DNA of 64,000 nucleotides from contig MTMF02000009.1 in the NCBI GenBank assembly GCA_002011125.2, forward strand, positions 872,989 through 936,988, given 5' to 3'. The first letter of the stretch is position 1. Each line of letters begins with the position of its first letter. The notes under the pieces were generated by a model that made no database searches, was not told the origin of the DNA, and saw only the letters and a list, made by a program, of their open reading frames with translations. The translations under genes were made by a program, and so were the position numbers. The DNA is from Candidatus Hydrothermarchaeum profundi. Its GTDB lineage: Archaea > Hydrothermarchaeota > Hydrothermarchaeia > Hydrothermarchaeales > Hydrothermarchaeaceae. Positions 42,062 to 64,000 of this stretch are shown here, one piece after another.

Positions 42062-42223
42062 ATGACTAAACTTCAAAGAACAAGTAAGGACCAGTACTTT
42101 TTGATAATACCAAGAGATCTGATTAGGTTAGTCGGATGGAAAGAAGGAGATGAGATAGATATACGCTCCGGCTCGGAGGTTAGTCCAGGGAAAAAGGATC
42201 TGGTCTTAAGAAAAGTCTCATAA
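42062..42223 (+). CDS. AbrB/MazE/SpoVT-family DNA-binding microprotein (53 aa)
   Basis: Not in the ORF track. MTKLQRTSKDQYFLIIPRDLIRLVGWKEGDEIDI... matches the swapped-hairpin pattern (I.IP..l....g...GD.l). Confidence 0.8.
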   Translation: MTKLQRTSKDQYFLIIPRDLIRLVGWKEGDEIDIRSGSEVSPGKKDLVLRKVS

Positions 42224-42384: not shown

Positions 42385-42555
42385 TAGGTATGAGGCCGTC
42401 CAATGAAGGAGAGGAGCAATTTATTAGGCATTTGGACAATTTCACCAAGAGCTTTTAAGGAATTCTATTCAAACCTCCTAGAGTATATATGCATATATAG
42501 AATATTTCCCGAATCTATAAGCCCATGTAGGAACTTAGTATACTATGGAGAGCGA

Positions 42556-43476
42556 ATGATAATAAGAAGGGCGGTAGAATTTATAGTATTATCCATATTT
42601 ATTTTATCCTCAGTAAACATAGTTTTCGCTGATGTCTTCATAGAGTCTCAGGGTCCAGGAGGCTACGGCTGGCAGCAGCTTTTCTATAATACTACTTCTC
42701 CATATAACTTTTACAGGCTGACAGCTTCTGCAGATAGACAATACTACGATTATGGTTATAAGAGCATACAGATATATGCTCGCCAAGAAGACTATTGGTC
42801 TCAGGATAGCGGGTGGTGGTATGTTACAAACCCTACTATTAGTTCCATTAAAATATACGATAATGGATCTGGATTGGTATATTCAAAGACCAGCGGATTT
42901 ACTGTGACAAATGCAACGGTTTACATAACTTATAACTGGGGGACAAATATCAGCGGAACAGAGAAGCCTGGTACTTGGACGGTTAATGTTAGTGACGGCA
43001 CACAGACAGCGACTTTTTACATTTTCGTGAGAGGGCAATTGAATGTCACATCCATAACAACCAGCGCTAGTCCTACGGCTAATAGCCCCGTGACAGTATA
43101 TGCTACAATAAAGGATGCAAGAAGCGGCATTGAAGTGACAAGCGGGATTACCCCAGTGCTCTATGTTACAGGTGGTACAGGATACACTTATAGTACAACG
43201 ATGTCCTACAGTGGGGGGTATTGGAACGCACAGTTTACTCCGCCTTCCCCGGGAGACTATAAGATTATAGTTAAGGCCTCTGACGGTCATAATAAGTGGG
43301 TGGATGGGAGGGGAAGTAAGGACATCTCGGTTGGAGGTGCATTCCCTGCTAGCATGATTGGAGGTAACTCGCTACTCAGGTTAGCGATTTTAATTGCTTT
43401 GATTTTAGGATTTGGAGTGAATAATAGCGTAAGAAGGAGGTTTCTCTACCTATTGAAGGAAAGGAGAGGTAAATGA
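42556..43476 (+). CDS. Secreted, C-terminally anchored beta-rich protein with GPGGYGWQQ motif (first gene of the cytochrome cassette)
   Basis: GGAG then ATG 42556; signal peptide ending VFA; Ig-like C-terminal half; terminal TM helix plus RRR/KERRGK tail; paralog at 63636. Confidence 0.85.
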   Translation: MIIRRAVEFIVLSIFILSSVNIVFADVFIESQGPGGYGWQQLFYNTTSPYNFYRLTASADRQYYDYGYKSIQIYARQEDYWSQDSGWWYVTNPTISSIKIYDNGSGLVYSKTSGFTVTNATVYITYNWGTNISGTEKPGTWTVNVSDGTQTATFYIFVRGQLNVTSITTSASPTANSPVTVYATIKDARSGIEVTSGITPVLYVTGGTGYTYSTTMSYSGGYWNAQFTPPSPGDYKIIVKASDGHNKWVDGRGSKDISVGGAFPASMIGGNSLLRLAILIALILGFGVNNSVRRRFLYLLKERRGK

Positions 43477-46400
43477 AGGGCTGCAGTTCAACAAGACTAT
43501 GCATTGCAGTGCTAGTAGGTATCTTGGCATTATTAGTACTCTCGCCTACAGCAACCGCTTCGGTAGCGACTTCAGGAAGGTACAATCTTTCTAGACCCAC
43601 TAATCTTGAGATAGAACCAAATCCTACTCCTAGTTGCTCTCAAGGTAATGGCGTGTCTGCTACATGTCACTTGCTTAATGCGACTTTCCCGGCGAGCAAA
43701 GCAGGAACTGCTAGAGATGGCTCCATAACAAGTACTTGGGATCATAAAACTTGGTTCAATCTCGGCGATGGGGCTACCCGAGGGGATACTTCTATTGCGC
43801 ATCCTGGTGCCGAGCGGGGGCCTGCTTCAATGTTTCCTCTATGGGTACACCAGCAACATGGTTTGGGTAATTGGCCTACGTGGAATCTGAATCCTAATTA
43901 TCCTGTTAACTACACAGTTGACCCTAATTGGATTAATTCGTCATTATATTCTGCAAGTGCAGCCCCTGGCAAAAGAGATCAAGACGTAGGAGACAATATA
44001 GGTAATGACCAGGGGAATAGGAGATTTCCAGCGCAAGCTGAAAATAACGTGGGACCATATTGGGGGAAGAAAATAAAGGGCGATTCCATAATAATGTCTG
44101 GTGAGGACCCAAATCAAATCTTAGCATTAGCTTTCATAGCTTATCCAACTGCTGACAAAGACCGTACTCCAGCAGGCCTACCTTCCTGTACCTACGGGAG
44201 TCAGGGGAATTCTTATGAAAACACAACCGATACCGTTGGATGTCACGGGATCTATGAGCCTTACAAGGCGAAAGCGGACAATTATCGCTCAGACGAGCCA
44301 GCTTGTACGAAGTGTCATACCACGATAACGTCTGGCGCAGTAACCAGCACTAACAGCAAGCATGGATCAGCTACTAATGCCCAGTTCTGTAGGGACTGTC
44401 ATAAGAATGCCTCTCAATCTCCAACAGCGGATAAGCTTGCAGATAATACCGTTACTGGTACAACAGGGTTTATACCCATGGTCAGAGAATGTTGGGAATG
44501 CCACTCAGGTACAAAACTTGGGGCTTCTGGAGTTAATACAACTTTCGCCCACTCTGGTAAAGACTGCCGCTATTGTCATGGTCACGGACATAACATAACA
44601 AGGCAACTTAACTGGAACACAACTTGTGGAAATAACGATGACATTTGCCATGGTAGCGGATCTACAAAGCCTCAGACTACTTTAGTTACCCACAATAAAA
44701 CCGGTAGCTCTACGCCTAGCCCAACTTGCTTTAATTGTCATGGGTCATCCACCGCCCATAATATAACGATACCGGGGTGCAATAAATGTCATAACTCTAC
44801 CTCAACATGGGGCGCAGCTAGAATAAATGGAACAGGTGCAATACCGGCCTGGGATTCTTCGAATGCTATTTATCATGGGGGGGCAGATAAAAAGTGTAGT
44901 GACTGTCATCAAAGCTCTCCCCACTCTAGGCCGGTGAAAAGAGAGTCATGCGGGATTGATAATAGTAGTTGTCATGGTAGCGGTGCAACCAAGGTTATAA
45001 CTCAGACGCATTCTAATCTTAGTTGTACAGATTGCCACAACAATAACACGATAAAGAGCTATTCCGGAAATCTACAAACCATTAACACTAATTTCCACGC
45101 TACTGAGCGTAGCACATCTGGAGCTAATATGACTCCTTTCAATATCTCTTCACCAATTCAAAAATCTGACTGTACTAAGTGTCATGATAATAGCAGCTAT
45201 ATAGACCCAAGCCTAAGTTGTGATAGTTGTCATACAGATACATCTCAAGGCAAGTTCACTGTCCACAGCAGCGACATGGAGGTGGCTTCTAGAGAACAGG
45301 GCAAGTTGGGTGATGGGAGACATGATGCAGGGGGACCTAATTGTACGCAGTGTCATTGGACGGGCAGCAATGAGAATAGGCCAGATGTTAACATCACAGT
45401 CTTTAACCAGTCTATACATCGATGGATAAACAACGCTAGCGAGCCAGGAATAGATGAGAACGAATCCATCAATAGGGCTTGTAGAGGATGTCACGTTACA
45501 AATGGAGAAGCAAGTCATCACAACAGGTATACTTACTGTTGGGATTGCCACAATGGTACTGCAATGTATAGTAATGTCAGTAATGCCCCAGCTGTGAGAG
45601 AGCACTATAATAACGCTTCAGAACTTAATATCTCCCTATTAAGCGGTGATATAAATTCTTCATGTGTAACATGCCATAATAAAACGGAAATGCTTCTCGA
45701 CTTCTGGGAAAATGCTACGACCACTAAAGGTAGGAATACCTCCTTTTATAATGTCTCGCATTATGGAAAGAAGAGGACCGACTTGAGGTATATCGAGAAC
45801 GGTAAAAATGTCACTTACTGTATATATTGCCATCAGAACTCCAGTACTGCATTTTCAGATGTCATGCAGAATACAGAGCATATCTCTATGTCTAATCACT
45901 CACCAAGGATGGGGGCTCCAACATGTTCTAATGAAACCTGCCATAATCAAGGTAGAATCCACGATGTCTCTCTAACCAAGCCTCAATTTAATGCCACCCT
46001 ATGTAGAACCTGCCATACAGACAGATATAATCATAGTGGCTCTAAACCAACTGGAGGTGTTAATTGTACTGAATGCCACACCAACACCTCTAAGGGAGGA
46101 TGGGATATTCACGGTATTAATGGCACCTATCTTCAGAACACAGGTAATACATATGGTCCTAATACTACCGCTGTTAACTGCTCCACCTGTCATCAGACCG
46201 ATACTCCTCCATCATTAATTAATACGCCACCGAGGATTCCTTCACCTTTGAATCACTCTAATAATGAGTCTGCTGGGCAGCTTTGGGGTGACTACTGGAA
46301 TGATACAGACTCTGTATTGAGTAATGACTCGTGCTATTATTGTCATGGAGATACCAAGCATAATGCCACTGGACTTGGAAATGTTTCCATAATCACAGGC

Positions 46401-49400
46401 ACAGTTAATGGGAGCATAAACTCTACCTCGCAGTGGTGTCGTTCTTGCCATTATAATGATAGCACCTCTATTTATAAAGGAAATAACTTCTCGCCACGTC
46501 CTCCTGAGATAACAAACGACACAGGCGAATTCTACAATAAGGCCCCATCCAAATATTATAATCACTCATTCACAGACACTTATAATGATACTAAATGCGA
46601 TGACTGTCATGCGCCATCTCCTACGCCTACAAATATTACTGCCTTCATGCATAATGTGCAGATCGGGGTGGCAGGAGGACGGAATTGCACAAACTGTCAT
46701 GATATAGGAGGCTCAGCTCCCAAACACATTAATGTATCCGCTTTCAACAGGAGCATCCATGCCAATCTAAACAACAATACTGATCCGGGTTCAGGGATTC
46801 CCAATGTAACTACCGCATGTTGGGCGTGCCATGGAGACGGCACAGATCCTGGAAACAGTCATCCAAGCAACTATAAGAATCCATATACCTGCTCTGATTG
46901 CCATGTACAAGGAGGAGCAAATTATGGGAAGTATCCGAACGCTAAGAACGTATCAGAGCATTATAATAATGGAGCAGATGTCAACGTTTCTAAGTTAACA
47001 GGAGATGTAGACTCCTCCTGTGCCTATTGCCATTATGGGAAGTCAGAGATGCTTCTATCAGCCAGCGAAATAAATGATCCAGATACCGTATCATGGTCCA
47101 TTTACTCAGGCTATAATGGTGGCAATAATAGTGCATCACATTATGGAAAGAAAAGATTCGTGAGCGGAGACGGGCTTTATACGGCGGGCGGATACACTAA
47201 CTGCTCATATTGTCATCAAAATACTGCGACCAACTTCGCAGACGCTATGGAAAACCTCAATAATATTAACCTTTATAACCACACCAATAGGACGGGGGGA
47301 CCATATTGCACGAACTCTACTTGTCATGGTTCCGGTAGGATACATGATGCTATCCTAACAAAACCCTACCTCAACTCTACTCATCAGTCTGGCGGCATGT
47401 ATAATAGTACTCTCTGTATCAGCTGTCACGCTAACAGAAGAGTGCATGCGGATGCTGGAGATATAAATGCTAATACGCTGGAGTGTGCATCTTGTCATGC
47501 TAATCCCACCGCCTACTCTGCGTCAGGCGGTGGAGCAGGGTATTTCAGTATTTCATATGATAGGGTGGTCATGAGAGATACTGATGGTTCGTATAGTGGT
47601 AACGGCTCGCCCTCAGAAGCTATGGTCGGTGACCCTGCAAGTGCCAAAATATCATCTAATATTGAGCCAACTGTTAAAACAGGAGGTTTATTAGATAAAA
47701 TAGGTAAATGGTTCTCTTCGGGCATCAACTCAGCTAAAGCTCTATTAGATAACATTGAGAAAGAGCTATTCAAACCATCAATAGAAATAGTAAACCCTGA
47801 ATCAAGACCTCGATTAGGTGGCGAGTGGGAGGTCTATTTCAAGACTAAGGGTTCAGGGGTGCTAGAAATACGAGATCATTCTTTCCCAGAGGAAGTGGGC
47901 TTCATAGCCCTGCTCTATAAGAAAATAGGAGATCAATGGATACCCGTGCCAATTGAAATATCTGGCGACCTTATTAGAGCCCAATGGAATCACGGTGAAG
48001 GTAAAGCCATCTTCAAGCCCCTCACCACAGGCAAGCACACGGTTGAGTTAAAATTTGGGAATTACGCCTATGCATATAACTATGTAGAACCTGAAGTAAA
48101 CTTTGATAGGCGCTTAGAAGGCCTGAAGACAGGGCAGCATAAAGTGCCACCTACTACTGAAATAGAAATTACAATAACAGCGACAGTTTCCAGCACGGTA
48201 GAAAATGCAATTCTTAGAGACTATGTGCCAAAAGACTTCACTATTATAAAGACTTATGGAGGCACGATAAAGGAGTATAATTCTGAGTACAATGTCATAG
48301 AATGGGAGGTTGGCACGGTAAATAAAAGCATTTCTAAGAAATATACTGTATACTCTCCTGAGAGAACTATACCTCCAACTAAGTACTATTTCTACTCTGA
48401 GCTGAGTCACGACGGGGGGAGCAGGACTAGTGATAAGTGGAGAGTAACTGTGGCTGATCCTAACACTTTGATTATAAGACCAAATGCAGATGGAACGTTA
48501 AACGACTGGAGTATAGGAGGCACTTCACCACCAGCAAACAGGTGGGAGGCCGTAGATGAAACAACACAAAATGATGACACCGACTATGTCTATGCGACAT
48601 CTCAGAATCTTGATCAGTTCTTCAATCTTCAGGATCACACTACAGAAACCGGAACTATAGACAATGTAACCGTGTATATTTACGCCAAACAAACGACTGG
48701 TAATGAGTACCTCCAGGTATGTATATGGGATAATACATACTGTCAGAATACTCCTACAATATCCACTTCTTATACTCTCTATAGCTATAGTTGGACGACT
48801 GATCCTTCAGATAGCCTAGCATGGACTTGGAGTGATATAGATGCTCTAGAAGCAGGGGTGAGGAGTAAAAATTCTGGAGGCTGGGGTGGAGAAATAAGGG
48901 TTACTCAACTCTATGTGGAGATATCATATACTCCTGCTGCCGCAGACAATCCACCCACATGGAGAAACCAGATGCAAAATGTTTCAACTATAAATGTCAG
49001 TGGCGCGGTTAATCTCTCGGCCCAAGGAAATGATGATAATGGCTTGTGGCAAGCTTATCTCGAAACAAATGAATCAGGAGGAACATGGGCTAACATAACC
49101 GATGGCACCTATGGTTCTCCGATTACTCTTAATAATGTAACAAGCTGGACTTGGACTAACTTTACATGGAGCAATTCTTCAATAGGACCCGGTACGAGTA
49201 TTGGCTGGAGGATATGGTATAAGGATAATGCTACTACGCCGCAGTGGAATGTCACAGATATTATGACTTTTGATGTTGTTGATGAGGTTCCGCCAGTGAT
49301 AACGTCCAAGTCTATAAACGAGAGCGGATCAGTAACTGTTGACACCTATGTGTGCATTAACACCACGGTTACAGATAACTGGCAATTAGATAAGGTCTGG

Positions 49401-52400
49401 TCTGTTTTAACTTATCCCAACGGAACAACAGAAAACGTAAGCTTAGCTAATACAGGAGTGCCATGCGCAAGCGGAGATACCTATGGTGCGGAAGTAAATG
49501 TGGGTTCAACTCAAGGGACCTTCTACTTTAATGCCAGTTATGCGAATGATACCTCAGGTAACATCGGGAGTAATACCACCGTACAGAGCTTAACAGTGAC
49601 TTCAGTTGATAATACTCCACCTTATAACATCTCCTTCATACCCCCCACACCTGATAATGCTACAACGTTACCCTCTACTCAAAATTGGACGACTATTAAC
49701 GTAACGGTTGAGGATGCCTCTAGCAGCATTGACACATGCCTGCTCGAATGGAATGGAACCAACGAGTCTATGACGATAGATGGCAGCGGCCTCTCCGTAT
49801 ACTGCTGGAGTAATAAAACCGACCTCTCAAATGGTGTCTATGGCTACCGTGTTTACGCTAATGACTCCTCCGGAAATATAAACGTTAGCGAGTACCGTGA
49901 GGTCACTATAGCTTACACTCCTACCTATAAGCAGATATACCGTTACTATGTCAAATTTGATATCTCAAGCATACCCCAAGGCGCCACCGTTAACGCAGCA
50001 AATCTCACAGTCAATGTCACTAGAGCAGCATCTGGGGCGATAGGTGTTGTAAATAGAACCACAGGGGACTACGACAGTACATCAGGGAACGACACGGTAT
50101 GGGCTGATAGCTCAGGAACAAAGAGCAGTGGAGGAACATTCGATGCAAGTACCACGGGTCTCAAAAACATCACAATCACTGAGGCAGTTCAGGCCGCTGT
50201 AAATGAGGGCGAAGGTTTCGTGGCTTTTGTGATAACAGAACTAAACGAAGACGCAGATCAAAACTTCACCATTGCTGGAAGCCAGAGCGGTTGGCCAAAA
50301 CTCTACATAAACTACTCAACTAATCCTCAAAAGCAAATCCACGGTATAAGATACATAAGAAAAGATGGCACCTATTCTACTCCCTATGACAGTTCCAATG
50401 TAGCCAACTGTACTTCTTGCCATCAAGGAAACATAGCAAGTGTAAATGGAACAAGTACGCCGCAGATTCCCTCTTCTATTACCCATAGTAATGGAAGCAA
50501 GTGGAATACTTCTCCAGGATACTGGGATGCAACCAACAATCTCTCAGCATGCCTCTACTGCCACGGGAATACGACTCATAACGATACAGCCCTAGGCAAC
50601 GCTAGTCAGGGCCTAGTTGATACTAATTATGTCAATGGAAGCATAAATACAACCAGCTACTGGTGCTCTGGCTGCCATAGAGAAGATTATGCTAACTATT
50701 ACGGCGATACTCTCTATCCAATCCCGCCCACCATAAATGCTTCAGGAAATTACTATCCGTCATCAGGAAGCCCAATAGATCACACAGGCTTCATTGCATC
50801 AGATAGCTCGGATTCAAAGTGCTTTGAATGTCATAAAGGCTCTTTGACTGGGGACCCGAAAATAGATGTCTTTTTGCACAAGGTCTCGGAAGGCAGGGCT
50901 GGAGGAGAGAACTGCACAACCTGCCACGATCTAGGGGGATCTGCTCCTAGCTTGCTAAACATATCAGCATTTAGAGAAGGAGTTCACGCTGGACTTAATA
51001 ATTATTCCAGCGATCTCGGTCCAAACAGTGGTTCTTCAGCAGATACCATCAACTATGCCTGCTGGGCCTGCCATGGTAATGGCTCGTCTCCTGGAAGCCA
51101 GCATCCGTCGAACTATAAGAGCCCATATAACTGCACCTCCTGTCACCTCGAGTCAGGGAGCAGGGCAGGTGTCTTCTATGGAGCTAGAAATGTCACTGAG
51201 CATTTCAAGGAAGGTGAAGACATACAAGCAGCAACATCTTATCCAAACAATATTACCTCTTGCCTATCATGCCACAACAAATCAGAGATGATATTATACA
51301 ATGGTAACGTAGGTGACCCTGATTTTGGAGGATTTAGTGATACAGATGGGGATGGAGTAGTAGGCGGAAACTACAGCTTCTATCACTACGGAAAGAACAG
51401 AACCTCTGACTTGGTGGTTAATGGCTACACAAACTGCTCGTATTGTCATCAAGATGCGAGCGATAGCTTTGGAGCGCCTGACGTTACAGAACATACTGAA
51501 GTGGGAGTGAACGTTTCAGTAACTAAAACCTGCGTCAACTCTGACTGCCACAATAGCGGCAGGATTCATGATGCTACGTTAAAGATTAGAACGGATATTG
51601 CACCCTGGACATCCGGCGCAAACGACAGGTGCGCTCCCTGTCATAACTCTACTGGTCCAGGTTCTTCCATTGTAATTTATAATCATACGTCCTCTGTTTC
51701 AGGCATCACCGATTGCTCCTATTGCCATGACAGTAACGCTAAGGGCAGTGGAGGATCGTATCTCATACTTCACAACTCTAGCCTACAGCAACCCTACGAT
51801 TCTAGCTCTTACCAGTGTAGCAACTGCCATCAAAACGCCGAAGACGATTATAACGCAAGAGATATATATGCTCACTCAAATAGCAGCTCTTCCACGCTGA
51901 ATGTAAACGGCTCAGACTGTGGGCGTTGCCATAAGACCGATTATTCTGCATTTACAGCGGGGGATAATCTCCATAACTCTACCCTAATAAAGCCTTCAGA
52001 GACCCAATGCACAGAATGTCATCAGAGTGCTAGTGACAGCGTATCAGCGGTAGATGTATATGAGCATACTACAGCGGCAGCTGCTAATGGACGTGATATT
52101 AACATAAGTAGAGAATGTACTGATAGTGGTTGTCATTGGAATGGCACAGGCAGTACGCCTACAATGCTTCACAACGACACTCTCGAGGTAAAGACAATAT
52201 ACGAGTTTAATCCATCTAATAGCGACGTAGACAGATGTGCTCCTTGCCATAACTCTTCAAGCAGCTGGTCTACGATAAATGTTACAGATCATACCCCAAG
52301 GGCAACGGGTCCAAGCTGCGTTAACTCAACATGCCACAGTGGTCAAAAGTTGCATACAGATTCCATTAAAAAACCGGCTACTATGTTCAATGATAGCCTA

Positions 52401-55247
52401 TGCTTAGAGTGCCACTCAGATCGGCAGCAACACGCCTCTTATGATCTTCCTGAGGTAGCAGATTCAAATAACCTTAACTGTACAGATTGCCATGCAAACT
52501 GGCAAAGCAGCGAGAAGCAGATTCATGGAATCAACAATAGTTACTTACAACAAGATCTTGCTTCATACGGAGCCAATACGACTGCGGTAAATTGCACTTC
52601 ATGTCACACTAATTCTACAGCAGTGATTAATGGCACTTCAGCTCCCTATATAGGAAGTAGCCTGAGACACAGCAATAATGAGTCTGCTGGGCAGCTTTGG
52701 GGTGACTACTGGAATGATACAGACTCTGTGTTGAGTAATGACTCGTGCTATTATTGTCATGGAGATACCAAGCATAATGCTACTGCCCTTGGCTATGTAT
52801 CTATCCTCAACGTAGATAATAATTATGTAAATGGTTCTGTAAATGGTACTTCTCAATGGTGTCGTTCCTGTCATTATAATGATAGCACCTCTATTTATAA
52901 AGGAAATAACTTCTCGCCACGTCCTCCTGAGATAACAAACGACACAGGCGAATTCTACAACCGTAACCCAAGCGGCTATGAATTACACACAGGTTCTAGT
53001 TATCTCGGAAATGACTCCACTTGTTCCAACTGTCATAAGGCAAGTAGTGAAGATGATCCTGGTATGGACAGGTTTGTACACAATGTAAAAATTGGTGTAG
53101 CTGGAGGTCGAAACTGTACTTCGTGCCATTATCTAGGCAGTAGCAACGCTCCTAAACATTTGAATCTCTCTGCAATGAATATCTCAGATAACGCCCACTA
53201 CATGCTTAATAATCGCTCTGGTGATCCTGGAACTACTGATACATCAGGCTCTGACTGGAATAACCGCAGGTGCTGGGCATGCCACAGTAATGGCACTAAT
53301 CCTGCAGACAGTCATAACAAAACCAAGTATAAGTCACCATGGACATGCCCTGACTGCCATCTCTCGAGTGGAGCAATGAACAGCGTATTCAACTGGAGCG
53401 CTGCAGGTCTAAGCAATGTCTCAGAGCATTATAGGAGCGGATCAGATATTCAAGCAACAGCGTTTGAGGCATCAGACCTAGAATCCTGTCTAAATTGCCA
53501 TGAGTATCGCGATGATATATCGCAGCCCATGTCAGAGATGCTTATACCAAATGTTAATGACCCAGATTACGGTAGCTTTACTGGAGATGGTGTAAGACCA
53601 AGTGAGACTGGTGGGAATTACAGTTTCTATCACTACGGAAAGAAAAGGTTTAAGAGTGGAGACGGGCTTTATACGGCGGGCGGATACACTAACTGCTCAT
53701 ATTGTCATCAGAATTCCTCAACAGGCTTCGATTTCACAGATACCAAAAGTTATCTGAAGAGTATAGAACAACATACTACACGACAACAAATCAATTGCAC
53801 TAATTCAACCTGCCACAACTCGGGCAGAATTCATGACTCCACATTGCAAAAGCCGACTTTAAGTATATCTAATGATACGATCTGCGTTACTTGTCATGGT
53901 AGTAGAGAGAGGCATGCTGGAAGCGTTAATTGCACTCAATGCCACACAAACACCTCAAAGGATATAGATATTCATCCAATCAAATATCTACTGCAAAACA
54001 ACACTTTCTCAACTTCAAACTCCTCTGCCGTTAATTGCACCACTTGCCATACAACATCAGCTATAACCGGAACTAACAATTTAGATCCACCGAGAGTACC
54101 TCAGTTAAACCATTCTAACGGCTCAAAATGGAGTTCCACCCCGTATTGGAATGACAGTGCCGGAAGCATGCAAAACTCATCCTGTTATTACTGTCACGGA
54201 GACACAAAACACAACTCTACCGCCCTTGGAAAAAGCTCAGGAGCCCAACAGGCTTGGGACTATATAAATGGTACCATAAATACCACTTCAACATGGTGCC
54301 AGGACTGCCACTATAATGGCAGCTCGAATTATATCGGCAGCTTGTTCTCTCCAGCTCCGCCGGAAATAACTAACGCCACTGGGCTCCTGGGCTCTGTCTC
54401 CGGATACTTTAACCATAGCTTGGGAAGCTATAATGACTCAGCCTGCTTCTCTTGCCATGGAAATAATACGTTAGGGGATAAGTTGGATGAATTCATGCAT
54501 AATATCTCTATTGGTAAGGCCTCAGGAAGCAATCCGAAAAATTGCACCTCATGTCATGCTTTACCCGAAGAAGGAGGAAGCGGAGCTGCTCCAAAAACGA
54601 TTAACAGAACCGCTTTTAACTCCACATATTCGATACATAGGCTATTAAATAGGACTGAAAGTGGAGATGAAAATACACCATGTTGGGCATGCCATGGTAA
54701 TGGCACGGCACCGTCGAGTGATATGAATCATTCTACATGGCCCAATCTGAAGAATCCTAAAGCATGTCCAGCGTGTCACGATCAGGGTAACTTTTCAGCG
54801 CCAGTTGTCTATAAGCATTCTCCAACCAGTTCGGCCGTTACTACAACTGCGGAATGCGAGTCCTGCCATAACAATAGCATGATCACCAATACTGGAGACA
54901 CAGCTACCAACTGGACTGCATTAGTTTCTCATTATGGCACTAACCAAAGTCTTAAGCCTGGAGGAACCTATAATACTACTAAGTGCATTAACTGCCATAA
55001 GAAGACTCTTGCCGAGGATCCTGTAGACGGATGCGCAGAAGCATCTAGTGCAACTGAGAGAGCAAAGTGGGGTAACCCGCCGATCGTTACCATGGGTCAG
55101 TGCGATGAGACACTTTGCTGGACATGCCATATGAGTGCAAACGAGAACAAAAAACCTGGAGAAAGTATCGAGACTCCAGATAATTTCCATAGCGCAACTA
55201 TAGTTGACATGATGTGGAACTGTCAGAGATGTCATGTAATAGACTAA
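43473..55247 (+). CDS. Giant extracellular multiheme cytochrome c (3924 aa; 67 CxxCH plus 10 non-canonical CxnCH)
   Basis: Sec-type signal peptide. Hand count: 67 CxxCH, 6 Cx4CH, 2 Cx6CH, 1 Cx9CH, 1 Cx17CH. Internal 12-heme repeats; no C-terminal TM anchor. Confidence 0.95.
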   Translation: MKGCSSTRLCIAVLVGILALLVLSPTATASVATSGRYNLSRPTNLEIEPNPTPSCSQGNGVSATCHLLNATFPASKAGTARDGSITSTWDHKTWFNLGDGATRGDTSIAHPGAERGPASMFPLWVHQQHGLGNWPTWNLNPNYPVNYTVDPNWINSSLYSASAAPGKRDQDVGDNIGNDQGNRRFPAQAENNVGPYWGKKIKGDSIIMSGEDPNQILALAFIAYPTADKDRTPAGLPSCTYGSQGNSYENTTDTVGCHGIYEPYKAKADNYRSDEPACTKCHTTITSGAVTSTNSKHGSATNAQFCRDCHKNASQSPTADKLADNTVTGTTGFIPMVRECWECHSGTKLGASGVNTTFAHSGKDCRYCHGHGHNITRQLNWNTTCGNNDDICHGSGSTKPQTTLVTHNKTGSSTPSPTCFNCHGSSTAHNITIPGCNKCHNSTSTWGAARINGTGAIPAWDSSNAIYHGGADKKCSDCHQSSPHSRPVKRESCGIDNSSCHGSGATKVITQTHSNLSCTDCHNNNTIKSYSGNLQTINTNFHATERSTSGANMTPFNISSPIQKSDCTKCHDNSSYIDPSLSCDSCHTDTSQGKFTVHSSDMEVASREQGKLGDGRHDAGGPNCTQCHWTGSNENRPDVNITVFNQSIHRWINNASEPGIDENESINRACRGCHVTNGEASHHNRYTYCWDCHNGTAMYSNVSNAPAVREHYNNASELNISLLSGDINSSCVTCHNKTEMLLDFWENATTTKGRNTSFYNVSHYGKKRTDLRYIENGKNVTYCIYCHQNSSTAFSDVMQNTEHISMSNHSPRMGAPTCSNETCHNQGRIHDVSLTKPQFNATLCRTCHTDRYNHSGSKPTGGVNCTECHTNTSKGGWDIHGINGTYLQNTGNTYGPNTTAVNCSTCHQTDTPPSLINTPPRIPSPLNHSNNESAGQLWGDYWNDTDSVLSNDSCYYCHGDTKHNATGLGNVSIITGTVNGSINSTSQWCRSCHYNDSTSIYKGNNFSPRPPEITNDTGEFYNKAPSKYYNHSFTDTYNDTKCDDCHAPSPTPTNITAFMHNVQIGVAGGRNCTNCHDIGGSAPKHINVSAFNRSIHANLNNNTDPGSGIPNVTTACWACHGDGTDPGNSHPSNYKNPYTCSDCHVQGGANYGKYPNAKNVSEHYNNGADVNVSKLTGDVDSSCAYCHYGKSEMLLSASEINDPDTVSWSIYSGYNGGNNSASHYGKKRFVSGDGLYTAGGYTNCSYCHQNTATNFADAMENLNNINLYNHTNRTGGPYCTNSTCHGSGRIHDAILTKPYLNSTHQSGGMYNSTLCISCHANRRVHADAGDINANTLECASCHANPTAYSASGGGAGYFSISYDRVVMRDTDGSYSGNGSPSEAMVGDPASAKISSNIEPTVKTGGLLDKIGKWFSSGINSAKALLDNIEKELFKPSIEIVNPESRPRLGGEWEVYFKTKGSGVLEIRDHSFPEEVGFIALLYKKIGDQWIPVPIEISGDLIRAQWNHGEGKAIFKPLTTGKHTVELKFGNYAYAYNYVEPEVNFDRRLEGLKTGQHKVPPTTEIEITITATVSSTVENAILRDYVPKDFTIIKTYGGTIKEYNSEYNVIEWEVGTVNKSISKKYTVYSPERTIPPTKYYFYSELSHDGGSRTSDKWRVTVADPNTLIIRPNADGTLNDWSIGGTSPPANRWEAVDETTQNDDTDYVYATSQNLDQFFNLQDHTTETGTIDNVTVYIYAKQTTGNEYLQVCIWDNTYCQNTPTISTSYTLYSYSWTTDPSDSLAWTWSDIDALEAGVRSKNSGGWGGEIRVTQLYVEISYTPAAADNPPTWRNQMQNVSTINVSGAVNLSAQGNDDNGLWQAYLETNESGGTWANITDGTYGSPITLNNVTSWTWTNFTWSNSSIGPGTSIGWRIWYKDNATTPQWNVTDIMTFDVVDEVPPVITSKSINESGSVTVDTYVCINTTVTDNWQLDKVWSVLTYPNGTTENVSLANTGVPCASGDTYGAEVNVGSTQGTFYFNASYANDTSGNIGSNTTVQSLTVTSVDNTPPYNISFIPPTPDNATTLPSTQNWTTINVTVEDASSSIDTCLLEWNGTNESMTIDGSGLSVYCWSNKTDLSNGVYGYRVYANDSSGNINVSEYREVTIAYTPTYKQIYRYYVKFDISSIPQGATVNAANLTVNVTRAASGAIGVVNRTTGDYDSTSGNDTVWADSSGTKSSGGTFDASTTGLKNITITEAVQAAVNEGEGFVAFVITELNEDADQNFTIAGSQSGWPKLYINYSTNPQKQIHGIRYIRKDGTYSTPYDSSNVANCTSCHQGNIASVNGTSTPQIPSSITHSNGSKWNTSPGYWDATNNLSACLYCHGNTTHNDTALGNASQGLVDTNYVNGSINTTSYWCSGCHREDYANYYGDTLYPIPPTINASGNYYPSSGSPIDHTGFIASDSSDSKCFECHKGSLTGDPKIDVFLHKVSEGRAGGENCTTCHDLGGSAPSLLNISAFREGVHAGLNNYSSDLGPNSGSSADTINYACWACHGNGSSPGSQHPSNYKSPYNCTSCHLESGSRAGVFYGARNVTEHFKEGEDIQAATSYPNNITSCLSCHNKSEMILYNGNVGDPDFGGFSDTDGDGVVGGNYSFYHYGKNRTSDLVVNGYTNCSYCHQDASDSFGAPDVTEHTEVGVNVSVTKTCVNSDCHNSGRIHDATLKIRTDIAPWTSGANDRCAPCHNSTGPGSSIVIYNHTSSVSGITDCSYCHDSNAKGSGGSYLILHNSSLQQPYDSSSYQCSNCHQNAEDDYNARDIYAHSNSSSSTLNVNGSDCGRCHKTDYSAFTAGDNLHNSTLIKPSETQCTECHQSASDSVSAVDVYEHTTAAAANGRDINISRECTDSGCHWNGTGSTPTMLHNDTLEVKTIYEFNPSNSDVDRCAPCHNSSSSWSTINVTDHTPRATGPSCVNSTCHSGQKLHTDSIKKPATMFNDSLCLECHSDRQQHASYDLPEVADSNNLNCTDCHANWQSSEKQIHGINNSYLQQDLASYGANTTAVNCTSCHTNSTAVINGTSAPYIGSSLRHSNNESAGQLWGDYWNDTDSVLSNDSCYYCHGDTKHNATALGYVSILNVDNNYVNGSVNGTSQWCRSCHYNDSTSIYKGNNFSPRPPEITNDTGEFYNRNPSGYELHTGSSYLGNDSTCSNCHKASSEDDPGMDRFVHNVKIGVAGGRNCTSCHYLGSSNAPKHLNLSAMNISDNAHYMLNNRSGDPGTTDTSGSDWNNRRCWACHSNGTNPADSHNKTKYKSPWTCPDCHLSSGAMNSVFNWSAAGLSNVSEHYRSGSDIQATAFEASDLESCLNCHEYRDDISQPMSEMLIPNVNDPDYGSFTGDGVRPSETGGNYSFYHYGKKRFKSGDGLYTAGGYTNCSYCHQNSSTGFDFTDTKSYLKSIEQHTTRQQINCTNSTCHNSGRIHDSTLQKPTLSISNDTICVTCHGSRERHAGSVNCTQCHTNTSKDIDIHPIKYLLQNNTFSTSNSSAVNCTTCHTTSAITGTNNLDPPRVPQLNHSNGSKWSSTPYWNDSAGSMQNSSCYYCHGDTKHNSTALGKSSGAQQAWDYINGTINTTSTWCQDCHYNGSSNYIGSLFSPAPPEITNATGLLGSVSGYFNHSLGSYNDSACFSCHGNNTLGDKLDEFMHNISIGKASGSNPKNCTSCHALPEEGGSGAAPKTINRTAFNSTYSIHRLLNRTESGDENTPCWACHGNGTAPSSDMNHSTWPNLKNPKACPACHDQGNFSAPVVYKHSPTSSAVTTTAECESCHNNSMITNTGDTATNWTALVSHYGTNQSLKPGGTYNTTKCINCHKKTLAEDPVDGCAEASSATERAKWGNPPIVTMGQCDETLCWTCHMSANENKKPGESIETPDNFHSATIVDMMWNCQRCHVID
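46260..46366 (+). repeat. 107-bp intragenic direct repeat, copy 1 (copy 2 at 52674-52780; 1 mismatch)
   Basis: AATAATGAGTCTGCTGGGCAG...CAAGCATAATGC occurs twice. Confidence 0.92.
46449..46537 (+). repeat. 89-bp identical intragenic direct repeat, copy 1 (copy 2 at 52872-52960)
   Basis: CATTATAATGATAGCACC...GAATTCTACAA occurs twice. Confidence 0.92.
47166..47218 (+). repeat. 53-bp identical intragenic direct repeat, copy 1 (copy 2 at 53658-53710)
   Basis: GGAGACGGGCTTTATACGG...TTGTCATCA occurs twice. Confidence 0.9.
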
Positions 55248-58200
55248 AAGCTATAAAATATCTCATAGCGATAATCTGCTTAATCTATCTTTACCCCAGT
55301 GTATATGCTTTAGGAAACCAGACGGGATGGCCTTATTATGTGGGGAATAGTCTTAGTTCTCCGATAATAGTAAATCTTGATGGCAATTTGTCTACTGGCC
55401 TTGAGATAGTACTCTCAAGAGGCCCAGGAATCCACCAGGGCAGAGGGAGGGTATATGCTTTCTACTATACCAACGAGACTTTATTCCCCTCCGGCTATCT
55501 TGAGGTATCTACCGATGGAGAAAGTATCGGTCCACCAGCAGTAGGAGACTTAATGGGCGATGGTAAACTATCTGTTGTTGTGGGTTCCAGCTTAGGAAAA
55601 ATCTATGCATGGTATTACAATGGTTCTGGAGTTTTAAATCAAAGCGGGCTTTTCACTGTCACTGGTAACAATATTCAGTCCTCTCCTGTTTTAGTAGACT
55701 TAGATAGTAATATTTCTAATGGGCTCGAAATACTTGTAGGTCTAGAAAATGGCAGTTTACAGGCTTGGTATAGTAATGGAAGCCTAATGTGGTCTAAATC
55801 TGTCGGTGGAGCTATATACTCAATTTCGGTTGCTGATTTAGATGGCGATAGTGCGATAGAAATAGTTGCAGGTTCTGGTGATAGTAAAGTTTATGCATTA
55901 CATTGGGATGGAGCCCCTGTTAGTGGATGGCCTGTTGATACGGGCGGGCCCGTGGTAGCATCCCCTGCTACCTGCGACCTAGATAGAGACGGCTATCCAG
56001 AGATAATAACGGGCTCAGAGGACTTTAAAGTATATGCATGGCGGCATGATGGAACTGCTCTAGCAGGTTGGCCTGTTACAACATATAATTATGTAGAGTC
56101 TTCTCCCTCTTGCGGTGATTTGAATGGGGATGGATACTTAGAGGTAGTTGTAGGTAGTAGAGACCACAGTGTATATGTCTGGAATTATAATGGTACCTTA
56201 TTAGATGGCTGGCCAAAATCGACCGAAGGTAATGTGGATTCATCCCCTGCTCTAGGTGACGTGGATGGTGACGGAAGTGTGGATGTAGTAGTAGGTTCAT
56301 CTGACGGTAAAGTGTATGCCTGGAGTTTTAATGGGTCTAATATTGAAGGTTGGCCGATTCAGGTTGATAGTCAAGTTGGATCATCTCCTGCGATAGGGGA
56401 TACAGACTTGGATAATAAAACGGAAGTCATTGTTACCACTCAGGGGGCTTGGATATATGTTTGGGAGACAGGAGTTTATAATAAGTCAAAGGTTCTCTGG
56501 CCAATGTTTCGGCAAAACCCAGCGCAGACAGCTTCAGTCCATCCTATTGTTAAAATAATCTCTCCTCAGGTTATTGGATGGTTTGGGGCATATGAGGACT
56601 CCCTTTTTTCCCTCAATCTTTCCAGTATTACTTTCCCCTATCACAGTGCTGTAACTTTTAATGGTTCTGCTTTTTATCCGAATGGAGAAATTTTAGCTTA
56701 TCACTGGAGTTCCGATATTAATGGAAGCATAGGAAACTCTTCAGACTTTATAATTGAAACCTTAAAAAGAGGATATCATAGAATTACTTTAACGATATCT
56801 ACTGACGATGGCTCATCAGGAAGTGCTACTGGAGACCTGTTTATTTACAATGGCCAGGTGAACTTCTCTGATAACACCTCCCTCTTTGAAATAAACTCTT
56901 CTACAGGGTACATCAGCTTTATTCCAGATAACTGGCAAGTAGGAGACTATGGGATAAATATAACAGTTAGTGATAGCGAAGGTGTTCTAGGATCTAAGAC
57001 ATTTTACCTGACAATTTTTAACACCAATGATCCACCACTAATTAATACCACTTCTCCCCAGACAATAGTTAATGAAGACACCATTTGGAGTTATGATTTC
57101 AATGCCACAGATGATGATGTAGATGCAGGTTATGGGGATACCCTTACATGGTATGTAAACAACACAAAAATCAGCATAGACCCTTCCACTGGATTTGCTA
57201 CATGGATACCAGGTAATAGCGAGGTAGGATATACCACTATAAACATAACAGTTGAAGATAGTGAAGGCGAAAGCGATACCCTCATATTCGATGTCTACGT
57301 GAATAACACTAATGATCCCCCAGTATTAGAGCATATTGGACCCCAAACTGCAATTACTAACCACACTTTTTATCTGAAAATTAATGCGTCCGATATAGAT
57401 AAAGGAGACAATGATACCTTAATATTTTCGGATGATACTCCTCTGTTCGACATTAACTCTACCACAGGAGAAATAAACTTCACTCCCACGTTATCTCAGG
57501 CAGGAAATACCTATTTCGTGAACATCTCGGTCAGAGATAGCAGTGGGGCAGTAGATTATGAGATAGTCCAGTTTTTCATAGATTATGAAATAAAAGAGCT
57601 TGATGTATCATGCTCACTAAATAAGGAGAATTACTATGTCAATGAAAATGTAACTCTAGAATGTACGGTTACTAATTACTATGGGCAAAACGCAACTGCC
57701 GACATAGTACAGGCTATAATAACCACTCCTTGTGGAGAAGTTTGGAAAAATCTTACTAGAGTCGGTGACAACATCTATAAAGCCATAATAGACGATTCTT
57801 TCATCCAAGGAAACTACACCCTAACTATATACGCAAATAAGTCGAACTATACCTCAGGTGAAGCGACGTTAAGCTTTGAGGCACTCCCGCCGGCTACATG
57901 GCACTATTATAAGAACGTAACTGTAAATTCAGGTACGAGTGAAAGGGAGAATGCACCCATTAAGCTGGAATTAAACTTTACTTATGAAATATCTAGTGTA
58001 GGTGGCTCTGGGACGTTCGACAATAACTCCATAAGGATATATGAGGTAGACTCACAAGGAAATGAAGTAGCAGAAGTAGAGTATTTATTTGAAAAGTCTA
58101 CAGGGGAACCTGGGGCAACTAATATAGCGTTAGGTAAAACGGCAACCGCTAGCTCTAGCTATGGGGGAGGCTATGAGCCTTGGAGAGCTGTTGATGGAAA

Positions 58201-61200
58201 TAAAAATACTATGTGGGGAACTGACTGTGGAAGCTGTGGCTGTGAAAACTGGCTAAAAATAGATTTAGGTGAAAAGAGAGATTTGTCTAGCGTAAAAATC
58301 ATAGGATGGGAGGGATATTCTCATCCTAAGGACTATACTATACAAGTTAGTGAGGATGATATCACATATACAACAGTGATTACCGTTGTAGGAAGCTCAA
58401 CTTATTCATCAACACATCAATTTCCGCCTGGCGTGTCTGGTAGGTGGGTCAAAATAAGTATAACTGATAATGGGGGCGCATATGGGTGGTGCTCGGAAAC
58501 CTACGTAGAGGAGCTTGAAGTATATCCTCTTATTAACGCCTATAATGCCTCTACAAATGCGATAGGAAATCTCACATGGATATTAAAAAATATAACTCCA
58601 CCAAACTCTGATAGATTCTACCAAATACGTTTTGATACTATTGAAAATGGCGAGAAAAAGGCCCCTGGCTACCAAGTTAATTATAGTGGATTGCAACCGG
58701 CAGAGGGCTTGAATATTTATGAGTATTCAACATATTTCAACCAGCCTCCTATTGCGTTAATAGAAGCCAATAACTCCACTCTTAGAAATAGGCCATTAAC
58801 CCTAAATGGATCTGGCTCTTATGATCCGGAAGGAGATGAGCTACAGTATATTTGGAATTTAGGCGACTGTAGCAGAGGGTTAGGAGAGTATATAGTACAT
58901 ACTTTCACAGCTAACACATCTTCTGATCTTGGTGTTAAAAATGTAACTCTATCTGTCTATGATAAAGAGGGAGGGGCAGGTATAGGCTCCTTTTTAGTTG
59001 AAGTTAGTAACGAGCCTCCAACGTTATATTTAGGCAACATGACCTTTATAGAAGACAACTTTTCTGTATTCTATGTAAATGCGAGTGATATAGACCAGCT
59101 TAGCTTCAGCGCTACTATAATCCCAAACCTCACAAAATTTAATATCAATGCTACTGGCGCTATATCCTTCACGCCAGACAATTGGGATGTGGGGAATTAT
59201 ACTGTTAACGTTTCAGTATCGGATGGCCTAGTAACGGTCTCGGATACAGCTAGCTTAGAAATAGTAAACGTAAATGATCCCCCTGCGCTCGAGGAGATTG
59301 GAAAGCTAAATGCAACTCAAGATGAACCTTTTTACTATGATGTGAATGCGTCAGACGATGATATCATACATGGTGATGTACTATCCTTCTATGATAATAC
59401 TACTCTTTTTGATATTAATGAATCAACAGGAGTAATATCATTCACACCCAATAATAGTGATGTGGGGATATATTCAATAAATATCTCAGTTACAGATGGC
59501 GAAGAATGGGATTTCGAAGAGATACTATTTAGAGTTGCAAACATCAATGATCCTCCTAACATAACTCAGCATTATCCACAATATAATCCAACTATCAATG
59601 AAACCCAGAATTTCACTTTTAATGTAACGGCAATAGATCCTGATGGAGACCCCTTATTCTATACCTGGTACCTAGATGGCTCGAAGGTCGCTGATGCATC
59701 CGGAAGCTCTTGGACATATCAATCCGATTACAATAGTAGTGGCGTACATGAGGTAAAGGCAATTGTAGATGACATTTCACTGGCAGCACATGTTTCCTGG
59801 AATATTACGGTTTTAAATGTGAACCGTCCCCCAATTATCACGATCCTTTCTCCTACGAATCATTCTTATTACATTGAGAGTCAGAAAATAGAAATAGTGT
59901 CTTCAGCCCAAGACCCTGATGGAGACCAGTTGAATTATAGTATAATGCTAGACGGGGTTGAGATTTCAAATGACTCAAACTATAGCTATACTTGGAGCTA
60001 TGAAAGTGCCGGAAACCATACTATAAATATAACAGTCACAGACAGTAATGGAGCTTCTGCTAGCGAGAGTATTGTGGTTTTTGTAACCGAACCGGACATT
60101 TCTTTGAATTCTTCAGAGGTATACTTCTCTGATTCTCTCGTAGATGGACGTAGAGTATTGATAACAGCCACCGTAAGCAACTTGGGAAATGCAAGTACTT
60201 CTCAACTCTACCTCTTCTTCTATGATGGAAACATCACTAGTGGAGGGTATATCGGTAAGCAGGTTTTCACTCTTCAGCCATATTCAGTAACCAATGTATC
60301 TGTATATTGGACCCCAAGCTATGGAAACCATACCATCACTCTCTATGCCGATCCAAACCAAGTGGCGCCCAATTACGAAACAAGTAGTGAGAACAATCTT
60401 GCTACAAAGGAGGTGTATGTTAAAGCTAAGCCTGACCTTGCAATATACCCGGAGAACATAATTATTAAAGATTCTAATCTCGTGGAGGGGGATAATATAA
60501 GCATAGAGGCAACCATAATAAATGAAAACGAGACTGATGTCAGCTCTTTCATCGCCGAGTTAAGAGTAGATAACATAGTTAAAGCTACAAAAGAGTTATC
60601 TGTATCTGGAAATTCAAATACTACAACAAGCTTCAGTTGGATTGTTCTAGAGGGAGAACAAGAAATATCAATAGTCATAGATCCAGAAGATGTAATTGAT
60701 GAGGGGAATGAATCAAACAATCAAGCATCTGTTAAAATCACAGGAACGAGGGGATCAATAGACTTAACACCGCCTGTTATAAGAGTTTTTAATCCTTCTA
60801 ATGGCTCAAGTATTAATATCTTTAACAACACGGTAAAGGGAGAAGTTAGCGATAGAAGCGGAATTGATAATATAACCCTCAAACTCAATGGGGATATGGT
60901 AGATTCTTGGAACACGCCAGGCACTTTCCTTGAGAAGGTAAGCTATTCCCTAGGAAAAAACATTATAGAAATAATTGCAACCGACGCTTTAGGCCACTCA
61001 TCTACAAAGGAGGTAGAAGTTGAAGTACTGGCGCCGTATGCGAGTTTTCTAAAAAATGCTAGTGAAAAGGAATTCCTCGAAGTGGATGTTAGAAACCTCA
61101 CGAGTACTCTAATAGAGTTTATGCCGGAGACTGATTCCCTATTAAATATAACAATAGAAGCTGGAAGAGAGCCTTCGGACCTCTCAGCAAGACCGATGAC

Positions 61201-63635: not shown

Positions 63636-64000
63636 ATGTCTATAATCAAAATAGCCGCAATATTAGTTATCCTTGCTTTGCTGTTATCGGCTGGAGATGC
63701 GTATGCAGCTCAGATTAATGAATCTACCGGTCCAGGAGGCTATGGCTGGCAGCAGGTATATGATGTCCCTCCAGGTGCCAAAACAACTGCGGTAACTGCT
63801 ACCAGAATAACAGGTTCTGCAGATAGGAAGTACTACGACTATGGATACAAAAAGATTCAGATCTCAGGGAGATATGAAAACTATTGGTCAACCGACTCTG
63901 GATGGTGGTATGTAAGTGGAACATCTCCAAACATCTATATAACAATATATGATAATGCTAGCAATGTTGTTGTTGGTCCTGATCTAGGCGTTTCTACTAC
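63636..64000 (+). CDS. Paralog of the GPGGYGWQQ protein at 42556 (runs off the right edge)
   Basis: Not in the ORF track. GGAGG then ATG 63636: MSIIKIAAILVILALLLSAGDAYA-AQINESTGPGGYGWQQVY...TRITGSADRKYYDYGYKKIQISGRYENYWSTDSGWWYV...IYDN. Confidence 0.88.
   Translation, partial: MSIIKIAAILVILALLLSAGDAYAAQINESTGPGGYGWQQVYDVPPGAKTTAVTATRITGSADRKYYDYGYKKIQISGRYENYWSTDSGWWYVSGTSPNIYITIYDNASNVVVGPDLGVST

Follow-up and report, generated by a model that had tools for sequence, protein, structure and literature searches.

The gene at positions 42556-43476 (+ strand) of a 64,000-nt stretch of the Candidatus Hydrothermarchaeum profundi genome (contig MTMF02000009.1, positions 872,989 to 936,988; the whole stretch is called the window here) encodes a 306-amino-acid (aa) protein, P0001, as translated from the window, and lies immediately upstream of the gene for a giant multihaem cytochrome. 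We call this protein and its relatives headers, and the proteins encoded next to them or fused to them cargo. We found that the header is a haem-motif-free membrane protein, that most of its assessable homologues directly precede or are fused to a multihaem cytochrome, and that fused and separate forms have interchanged repeatedly. Our preferred reading, to which we give an even chance, is that the header acts in trans, as the subunit that anchors or docks at the membrane a giant extracellular cytochrome which would otherwise have no anchor. This role fits best because a C-terminal transmembrane (TM) helix is present in the header and absent from the cargo, because coupling between the two genes is tight and because fusion has recurred.

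The header is a type-I (bitopic) membrane protein with two folded beta-sandwich domains outside the membrane and a cytoplasmic tail. Its signal peptide (residues 1-25, cleavage between VFA and D; 42556-42630, +) was assigned from the hydropathy of the N-terminus, the small residues at -3/-1 and a position conserved in an alignment of 34 family sequences (alignment A1). The first domain, D1 (residues 26-160; 42631-43035, +), is an aromatic-rich macroglobulin-like beta-sandwich according to its AlphaFold2 (AF2) model and structure matches, and its ∼135 residues carry the motifs GPGGYGWQQ, SADRxYYDYGYK and D[CS]GWWY. It is followed by D2 (residues 161-264; 43036-43347, +), an immunoglobulin (Ig) domain of the filamin type with a conserved DGHxYWxDGRG (predicted local distance difference test score, pLDDT, 94-98 in the model). 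The end of the gene (43348-43476, +) encodes a GxFP motif, a TM helix (residues 265-292) and a basic cytoplasmic tail (293-306), and its TGA stop overlaps the next ATG. A hydropathy scan detected the N-terminal signal and the segment 265-292, then RRRFLYLLKERRGK, and the secondary structure of the model (DSSP) contained helices only at 272-288 and 290-305, i.e. in the TM helix and the tail. The order signal peptide, D1, D2, TM helix, basic tail was kept across the family, both in A1 and in the tails of 30 representatives. Residues R54, R61, Y64, K69, R76, G86-W-W-Y89, W128 and G139 were invariant among the 34 sequences, and charged and aromatic residues were conserved in both ectodomains, as would be expected for a conserved interface.

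A preliminary description of this DNA, made from the sequence alone, had noted a strongly aromatic segment without CxxCH shared by two proteins at 42556 and 63636, and a TM helix with a basic tail at the end of the first. These observations held: aromatic residues make up 20 of the 86 positions at 27-112 (23%), compared with 12.5% in the remaining ectodomain, and the 306 residues counted from the 42556 start contain 0 CxxCH, 0 Cys and one His, so that the header is not itself a c-type cytochrome. The motif segment is present as described, but it is not a separate segment; it is the N-terminal part of the D1 sandwich, and in the AF2 model two additional strands at the N-terminal end of that sandwich are formed by the GPGGYGWQQ block. 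The model of the whole header, built on 34 homologues, reached a pLDDT of 86.7, and that of D1 alone a pLDDT of 90.4 with a predicted template-modelling score (pTM) of 0.84. The best VIA-align match of D1 was the alpha2-macroglobulin MG domain 2p9r_B (Z 11.3, root-mean-square deviation (rmsd) 2.1, 96 of 97 residues aligned), the next six rows being alpha2-macroglobulin, complement, TEP or CD109 chains; Foldseek matched D1 to 2p9r_A at E 5.7e-4. D2 matched filamin, FN3 and PKD domains (Z 9-10.7), and profile A1 searched against PDB sequences found filamin-A (E 5.2e-5).

The cargo of the header is a cytochrome of 3924 aa with 67 CxxCH motifs (43473-55247, +; identified from the list of open reading frames (ORFs), the hydropathy scan and PF22113). 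The header stop overlaps its start codon by 4 nt (ATGA), as the preliminary description had it. By the hydropathy scan, the N-terminal signal (residues 3-33) is the only hydrophobic segment of this protein. It consists largely of MtrC/MtrF-like modules (PF22113, 13 stretches, E 2.5e-77), and no surface-layer (S-layer) domain was detected in it by the domain search. The partner cytochromes share an N-terminal domain of ∼245 residues that has no Pfam model (residues ∼30-276; 43560-44300 in the window; alignment A2). This domain opens 0-6 residues past the predicted cleavage site with G[RK]Y..S.P..LEIE and continues with S-C-x(4-11)-C-H, in which the spacer is variable, and HPG..R.PA..FP.WVH..HG..NWP.W, and the first regular CxxCH follows at residues 236-342. 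Judging from this motif, the cargo N-domain may bind haem through the unusually spaced C-x(4-11)-CH site. Searched against the phylum's 38 genomes, profile A2 found the domain at 4 places in 3 of them, each time immediately after a core-type header or fused to one. Within its own genome the header is confined to the cytochromes richest in haem motifs: 17 ORFs have at least 3 CxxCH, only 2 exceed 12 motifs and both carry a header, and among the 12 ORFs of at least 1200 aa it is found only on these two cytochromes. When the header ectodomain (residues 26-270 of A1) was modelled in complex with the cargo N-domain (residues 31-276 of A2) and a single haem, both runs scored 0.00, with the fold of the partner itself uncertain, which speaks neither for nor against binding.

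We then compared the gene context of 17 assessable homologues (13 loci and 4 fused database proteins); G028, G015 and L030, in which the header runs off the contig end, and the weak match G006 were left out. In agreement with the earlier proposal of a conserved header gene of cytochrome cassettes, contexts were not random: 14 of the 17 stood directly before a multihaem cytochrome or were joined to one in a single chain (11 to 67 visible CxxCH), two had a partner without a haem motif in view and one had no partner. A separate header was followed by the cytochrome in the window (67 CxxCH), in G008 (1589 aa, 34 CxxCH), in G027 (at least 2918 aa, 38 CxxCH), in G007, which belongs to a distant subfamily (at least 3061 aa, 64 CxxCH), in L026 (at least 693 aa, 11 CxxCH) and in L029 (785 aa, 13 CxxCH; here the header frame is broken in the contig). 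In L025 two cytochromes follow, of 923 aa with 17 CxxCH and 1787 aa with 27, and in L028 the visible 190 aa of the partner contain no CxxCH yet, so that this locus was counted on its N-domain motif only. Fusion to the cytochrome was found for the second header of the window's genome (33 CxxCH), L019 (at least 16), L024 (at least 12), P0033 (17), P0034 (33) and P0038 (38). Adjacency was strict: in the nine separate-gene loci the junctions ranged from an 8-nt overlap to a 22-nt gap.

The second header copy begins at 63636 and reaches the end of the window (63636-64000, +), so that its first 121 residues are visible there. The similarity between the two in-window copies was confirmed by BLASTP (52 of 96 identities, 54%, E 1e-27), and when copy 2 was extended into the genome the similarity covered residues 4-296 of 306 (46% identity, E 2e-62), i.e. 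the whole ectodomain and the TM helix, beyond the motif. The preliminary description was therefore right that the two are homologous, but the second copy is no free gene: the genome sequence shows it to be the N-terminal part of an ORF of 2035 aa with 33 CxxCH (C9:936624-942731). This ORF reads, in order, header, TM helix (278-298), RSSTKKK, a second signal peptide (302-327, predicted cleavage between VSA and ID) and cytochrome. Its header part aligns with the free header through the TM helix and the basic patch (...FRGIIGLFIVFWLLRSSTKKK), and after the cleavage site it continues with TGRYNISKPNLEIE, which is the sequence that opens the mature 3924-aa cytochrome (SGRYNLSRPTNLEIE). The hydropathy scan found no C-terminal TM helix in the fused protein. 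Contigs of runs X1 and X2, which are possibly the source data of the assembly, span the fusion junction with 0 differences and 0 gaps; runs X3 and X4 gave short, diverged pieces only.

The earlier suggestion to look for the motif fused to cytochromes was thus borne out, with seven fused forms in all, six of them with cytochrome cargo and one of these in the same genome. We placed them on a tree built from 51 headers (301 alignment columns, IQ-TREE in quick mode; its rooting does not order events), in which 7 rows were fused and 44 free-standing. The fused forms fell into different, mostly well-supported clades beside free-standing relatives. Parsimony required 6 changes by fusion or fission and the starred branches force at least 5, and the fused label showed no more clustering than after shuffling (scores as low arose in 137 of 500 shuffles). 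All seven fusions keep one order: the TM helix is followed by 3-7 residues, most of them basic, then by another hydrophobic stretch with small residues at -3/-1 (VSA, VNA, AYA, VGA, ALA, ALA and STA), and then by the cargo. This is the junction that would be expected if two adjacent genes, one ending in an Nout-Cin segment and the other starting with a signal peptide, merged at an ATGA-type junction and stayed functional. The junction sequences suggest that signal peptidase would separate the fused header and cargo again.

If the header is an anchoring or docking subunit, the following sequence of events can be envisaged. Header and cytochrome would be made 1:1, either by translational coupling or as a single chain, and the cytochrome would be exported via its own signal peptide beside the TM helix of the header. 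The freed cargo N-domain, with G[RK]Y..S.P..LEIE right after the cleavage site, would then bind the header ectodomain, and the header would thereby hold an anchorless electron conduit at the cytoplasmic membrane. A bolder version, which is possible but which we regard as doubtful, is that header and giant cytochrome form a previously unrecognised two-component module of archaeal extracellular electron transfer. On emerging from the translocon, a conduit of 30-70 haems would be captured at its free N-domain by a haem-free Ig-like stalk, and G[RK]Y..S.P..LEIE might take part in this by strand complementation; the fused forms would be prokaryotic 'polyproteins' cut at an internal signal-peptidase site, and the stalk would be reused for giant surface proteins other than cytochromes.

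Several observations weigh against an anchoring role. The partner is not always a cytochrome: P0041 is fused to a cargo with a DUF2341 domain and 0 CxxCH (1596 aa in total), the gene overlapping the header of L022 (1015-1943) shows no CxxCH over its 309 visible aa and matches no Pfam model, and in L027 the next ORF lies 425 nt downstream and contains no CxxCH. The loci are also not independent samples, since some are kin (L025 with G008; P0034 with the second copy of the window's genome), and adjacent genes share a history, so that co-occurrence would be expected for any co-regulated pair. Header matches at E<=0.001 were found in only 7 of the 38 genomes of the phylum, including that of the window, and many relatives therefore lack a header; one of the seven, G006 (39 residues, E 6.5e-4), was rejected as a homologue because the match is too weak. 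Lastly, macroglobulin and filamin beta-sandwiches are generic folds and are silent on function.

We next weighed other explanations of the same data. The header could be a surface adhesin or lectin whose aromatic, Arg- and Asp-rich D1 binds a glycan, the S-layer, a mineral or a partner cell, and which is co-regulated with the cytochrome for extracellular electron transfer without binding it. The 23% aromatic content of D1 and its invariant Arg, Lys, Tyr and Trp are in keeping with this, as are structure matches of the header to carbohydrate-binding modules and S-layer domains (Z 7.9-10.7) and the partners that are not cytochromes (P0041, L022). Co-regulation alone, however, leaves unexplained the stop/start overlaps or gaps of at most 22 nt, the at least five independent in-frame fusions that preserve the junction, and the pairing with one cargo N-domain in four cases out of four; the fold matches are generic. 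We consider an adhesin unlikely, though with a real chance of being correct. It is rather unlikely that the header is a secretion pilot, whose signal peptide would bring the mRNA-ribosome complex to the Sec translocon so that a cargo of 2000-4000 aa is exported co-translationally, with no lasting contact between the two proteins. Translational coupling at the ATGA overlap, the second signal peptide with a signal-peptidase-like site in all seven fused forms and the association of headers only with very large secreted proteins would suit such a pilot, but a pair of folded, well-conserved ectodomains whose surface residues are invariant would be superfluous in a pilot, and the other giant secreted ORFs of the genome do without a header.

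Two further possibilities concern the relation of the header to the cytochrome itself. A split gene, in which the header is a detached N-terminal module of the cytochrome with no separate role and the free copies are recent fissions, would account for fused forms in several clades, and where an ATGA junction is present the genes can be joined or separated by changing one base. Yet a TM helix, a basic patch and another signal peptide occur even in the fused forms, a combination typical of a hairpin or of two polypeptides inserted separately, and free-standing forms dominate the tree, although its rooting gives no order of events; we regard this explanation as quite improbable. The preliminary description had proposed an anchor, a nucleator or a chaperone for the downstream cytochrome, and the data narrow this choice: anchoring or docking fits best, and a chaperone specific for haem is disfavoured because the cargo of P0041 has 0 CxxCH and the header lacks Cys and has only one His. 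A dedicated chaperone or maturation factor outside the cytoplasm, serving haem attachment or the folding of the multihaem cytochrome, would fit a gene that heads the cytochrome gene and is made first, and a header paired with a cargo domain bearing the unusual C-x(4-11)-CH site. Besides the residue composition of the header and the cargo of P0041, the Pfam and NCBIfam searches also speak against it, as they revealed no resemblance of the header to Ccm proteins or to other maturation families, and this explanation seems to us very improbable.

We also compared the anchoring or docking subunit proposed here with known systems. A close likeness is to SlaB, which we take to be the membrane anchor of SlaA in the S-layer of Sulfolobales (SlaA/SlaB, PDB 8qox, from its entry title). 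Like SlaB, the header is Sec-exported and has N-terminal beta-sandwich domains and one C-terminal TM helix, and its gene adjoins that of a large surface protein without its own anchor. Superposition of D1 on SlaB residues 25-126 gave a Z of 7.7 (rmsd 2.9, 95 residues aligned, 20% identity), which is within the generic range for beta-sandwiches, and profile A1, which matched 25 PDB sequences at E<=1, did not match SlaB; no relationship was found at the sequence level. Unlike SlaB, the header has no coiled-coil stalk (the helices of the model are confined to residues 272-305), its partner is a multihaem cytochrome and not a lattice protein, and it precedes this partner and is repeatedly fused to it. 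A header holding a cytochrome would thus be analogous in logic to SlaB holding SlaA. With macroglobulins (MG2) and filamin Ig repeats the header shares the MG fold of D1 and the filamin-like D2, but it misses the Pfam cut-offs, and D1 has its two extra strands and motifs of its own; these are fold classes and not functional families. There is a further parallel to MtrCAB conduits, as an MtrC/MtrF-like cytochrome is paired with a dedicated haem-free partner of the same operon. In the Gram-negative MtrCAB, MtrB forms a beta-barrel sheath in the outer membrane, which archaea lack. Unlike MtrB, the header is a bitopic protein of the cytoplasmic membrane with Ig-like domains, and the analogy is one of logic only.

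A different solution has been proposed for the giant multihaem cytochromes of anaerobic methanotrophic archaea (ANME). According to PMC9012536, these are proposed to reach from the membrane to the outside of the cell, with one TM helix holding them, and their anchor is proposed in cis, as a C-terminal TM helix and an S-layer (DUF1608) domain within the cytochrome. Unlike in ANME, the anchor proposed here is either the product of its own upstream gene or is fused to the N-terminus of the cytochrome, with a second signal peptide inside the chain. Hydrothermarchaeota metagenome-assembled genomes (MAGs) have been reported to encode cytochromes with up to 67 haem motifs, with no partner mentioned in the consulted part of that article (PMC6759336), and haem is not mentioned in that of PMC6946796. 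No description of the header protein was found in the consulted parts of PMC6759336, PMC6775978, PMC6946796, PMC7327174 and PMC9012536, supplementary tables (e.g. Table S2 of PMC6759336) aside. Full-text literature searches likewise turned up nothing about such a header. The data bear on how archaea without an outer membrane hold and orient giant multihaem cytochromes, and hence on extracellular electron transfer and syntrophy. Hydrothermarchaeota cytochromes have neither of the ANME features, the C-terminal TM helix or the S-layer domain, and a coupled anchor protein would fill this gap. If the anchoring role is correct, the header would be a marker gene for this type of conduit, and it would offer a small, tractable protein (∼240 ectodomain residues, no cofactors) for assembly tests of proteins whose size makes them hard to express. 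The recurrent fusions that keep an internal signal peptide are also a natural example of how genes fuse and split where they meet in an ATGA.

The header family, which we name after its GPGGYGWQQ motif, is unannotated, small and narrowly distributed. Its members have a signal peptide, a D1 with R..R..Y....K......R and D[CS]GWWY, a D2 and a C-terminal TM helix with a basic tail, and a giant secreted protein, usually a multihaem cytochrome, stands next to them or is fused to them; the header of the window has this architecture in A1, and this kind of partner. No Pfam or NCBIfam model reached its cut-off for the header and no characterised family was matched, consistent with the preliminary description, which recognised no named family. 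The best sub-threshold Pfam matches were Y_Y_Y (20.8 bits, cut-off 26.6) and Filamin (PF00630, Filamin/ABP280; 17.1 bits, cut-off 26.9, E 0.01). PF00630 matched 14 of the 34 family members at E<=0.001 (best E 2.8e-6), a similarity at the level of the fold only, and PF01835 (MG2, cut-off 32.8 bits) did not match P0001 at E<=1 but matched one of the 34 members (E 8.4e-4), P0050 scoring 20.1 bits. The best ESM Atlas score was 0.81, which is at the level of a lead only, and the matches there were archaeal MG2/Big_1 clusters.

When the window's own genome (2.19 Mb, 19 contigs) was searched with the 306-aa header, exactly two places were found, the header itself and the second copy. A word-indexed search gave 30 homologues of 168-536 aa and 2 longer ones, all named 'hypothetical protein' only, barring an automatic label on P0034. 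A profile search of 1.84 billion representatives gave 253 matches at E<=0.001, 64 at <=1e-10 and 24 at <=1e-30; by our own reading of the table, ∼30 of the 150 matches listed cover D1, and the remaining listed matches are repeated Ig-like alignments at profile positions ∼100-270 in long proteins. The distant subfamily (G007, P0043, P0052 and others) has ∼22-25% identity and keeps R..R..Y..K..R, D[CS]GWWY and the TM helix with its basic tail. Outside the phylum there was one fused homologue, L019, from a MAG of a small class, in 1 of the 14 genomes there; its record is labelled Methanocellales, which may reflect transfer, a binning error or a coarse label. Some free-standing headers have an extra domain of ∼190-240 aa between signal peptide and D1 and reach 476-535 aa in total (P0028-P0030, P0035, P0040, P0050; L012:8756-10288; L026:1076-2536). 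An archaeosortase sorting signal (PGF-CTERM and related) was considered for the header C-terminus and rejected, as no NCBIfam model matched at E<=1; the genome has one archaeosortase-family gene, without an assigned type, and in a crude scan the GxFP motif was not seen in 25 other C-terminally anchored candidates of the genome.

The header start at 42556, which the preliminary description had chosen, is favoured over the ATG at 42403 (357 aa) used by the ORF list and by the database entry P0003, because both the alignment of homologues and conserved GGAG and TATA-like blocks upstream point to it. The Shine-Dalgarno-like sequence TGGAGAGCGA (42545-42555, +), given earlier as 'ATACTATGGAG', abuts the header ATG, and a GGAG lies 6-8 nt before the ATG in copy 1 and copy 2, where it has AT-rich flanks, and in G027, the orthologous locus from another family of the order. 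Further upstream, a TATA-like, AT-rich block read from the sequence (42484-42510, +; ∼50-70 nt 5' of the header start) is a candidate archaeal promoter; it contains GTATAT..CATATA..TATTTCCC, common to the upstream regions of copy 1 and of the G027 orthologue. The upstream similarity of the two copies noted in the preliminary description is therefore real as regards the GGAG site and its flanks, but it is short: in a three-way alignment the non-coding blocks that copy 1 has in common with the G027 locus were far longer than those it has in common with copy 2. Gene callers choose a longer 'MKER...' start in several homologues because the upstream non-coding blocks are conserved. Two such stretches of the window are conserved with the G027 locus, 42395-42420 with GAGGCCGTC..ATGAAGGAGAGGA ∼150 nt upstream of copy 1, and 42484-42555 with the TATA-like block and TGGAGAGC before the header ATG. 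No known RNA or tRNA was found in the 500-nt gap upstream of the header, the sole Rfam row being a chance-level lncRNA match (E 0.084). A 53-aa ORF between the Elp3-like gene and the header (42062-42223, +) has a sub-threshold MazE/AbrB-like match (PF04014, 23.3 bits, cut-off 24.7).

Downstream of the 67-CxxCH cytochrome the window encodes a 2250-aa secreted surface protein with FG-GAP propeller, PKD, Big_9, CARDB and discoidin domains (55214-61966, +). Its first 34 nt coincide with the last of the cytochrome gene, and it probably belongs to the same operon. It is followed by a 502-aa tetrahaem cytochrome with two CWB2 (cell-wall-binding 2) repeats (61976-63484, +; PF04122, E 1.7e-18), which represents a different route of envelope attachment within the same cluster. 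Outside the window, one ORF (C9:1094345-1126852) encodes as many as 10,835 aa; it starts with a signal-like segment and lacks CxxCH. Finally, a protein of ∼650 aa with a signal peptide, a conserved C-terminus (...ARLAFKEGT...) and no Pfam match lies a few kb from the header-cytochrome pair in five related loci (L011:15862-17829, L012:16795-18711, L013:2867-4834, L019:6886-8841 and L025:5099-7069), and its homologue in the window's genome (55% identity, E 2e-224) is encoded 230 kb away, at C9:1166092-1168005.

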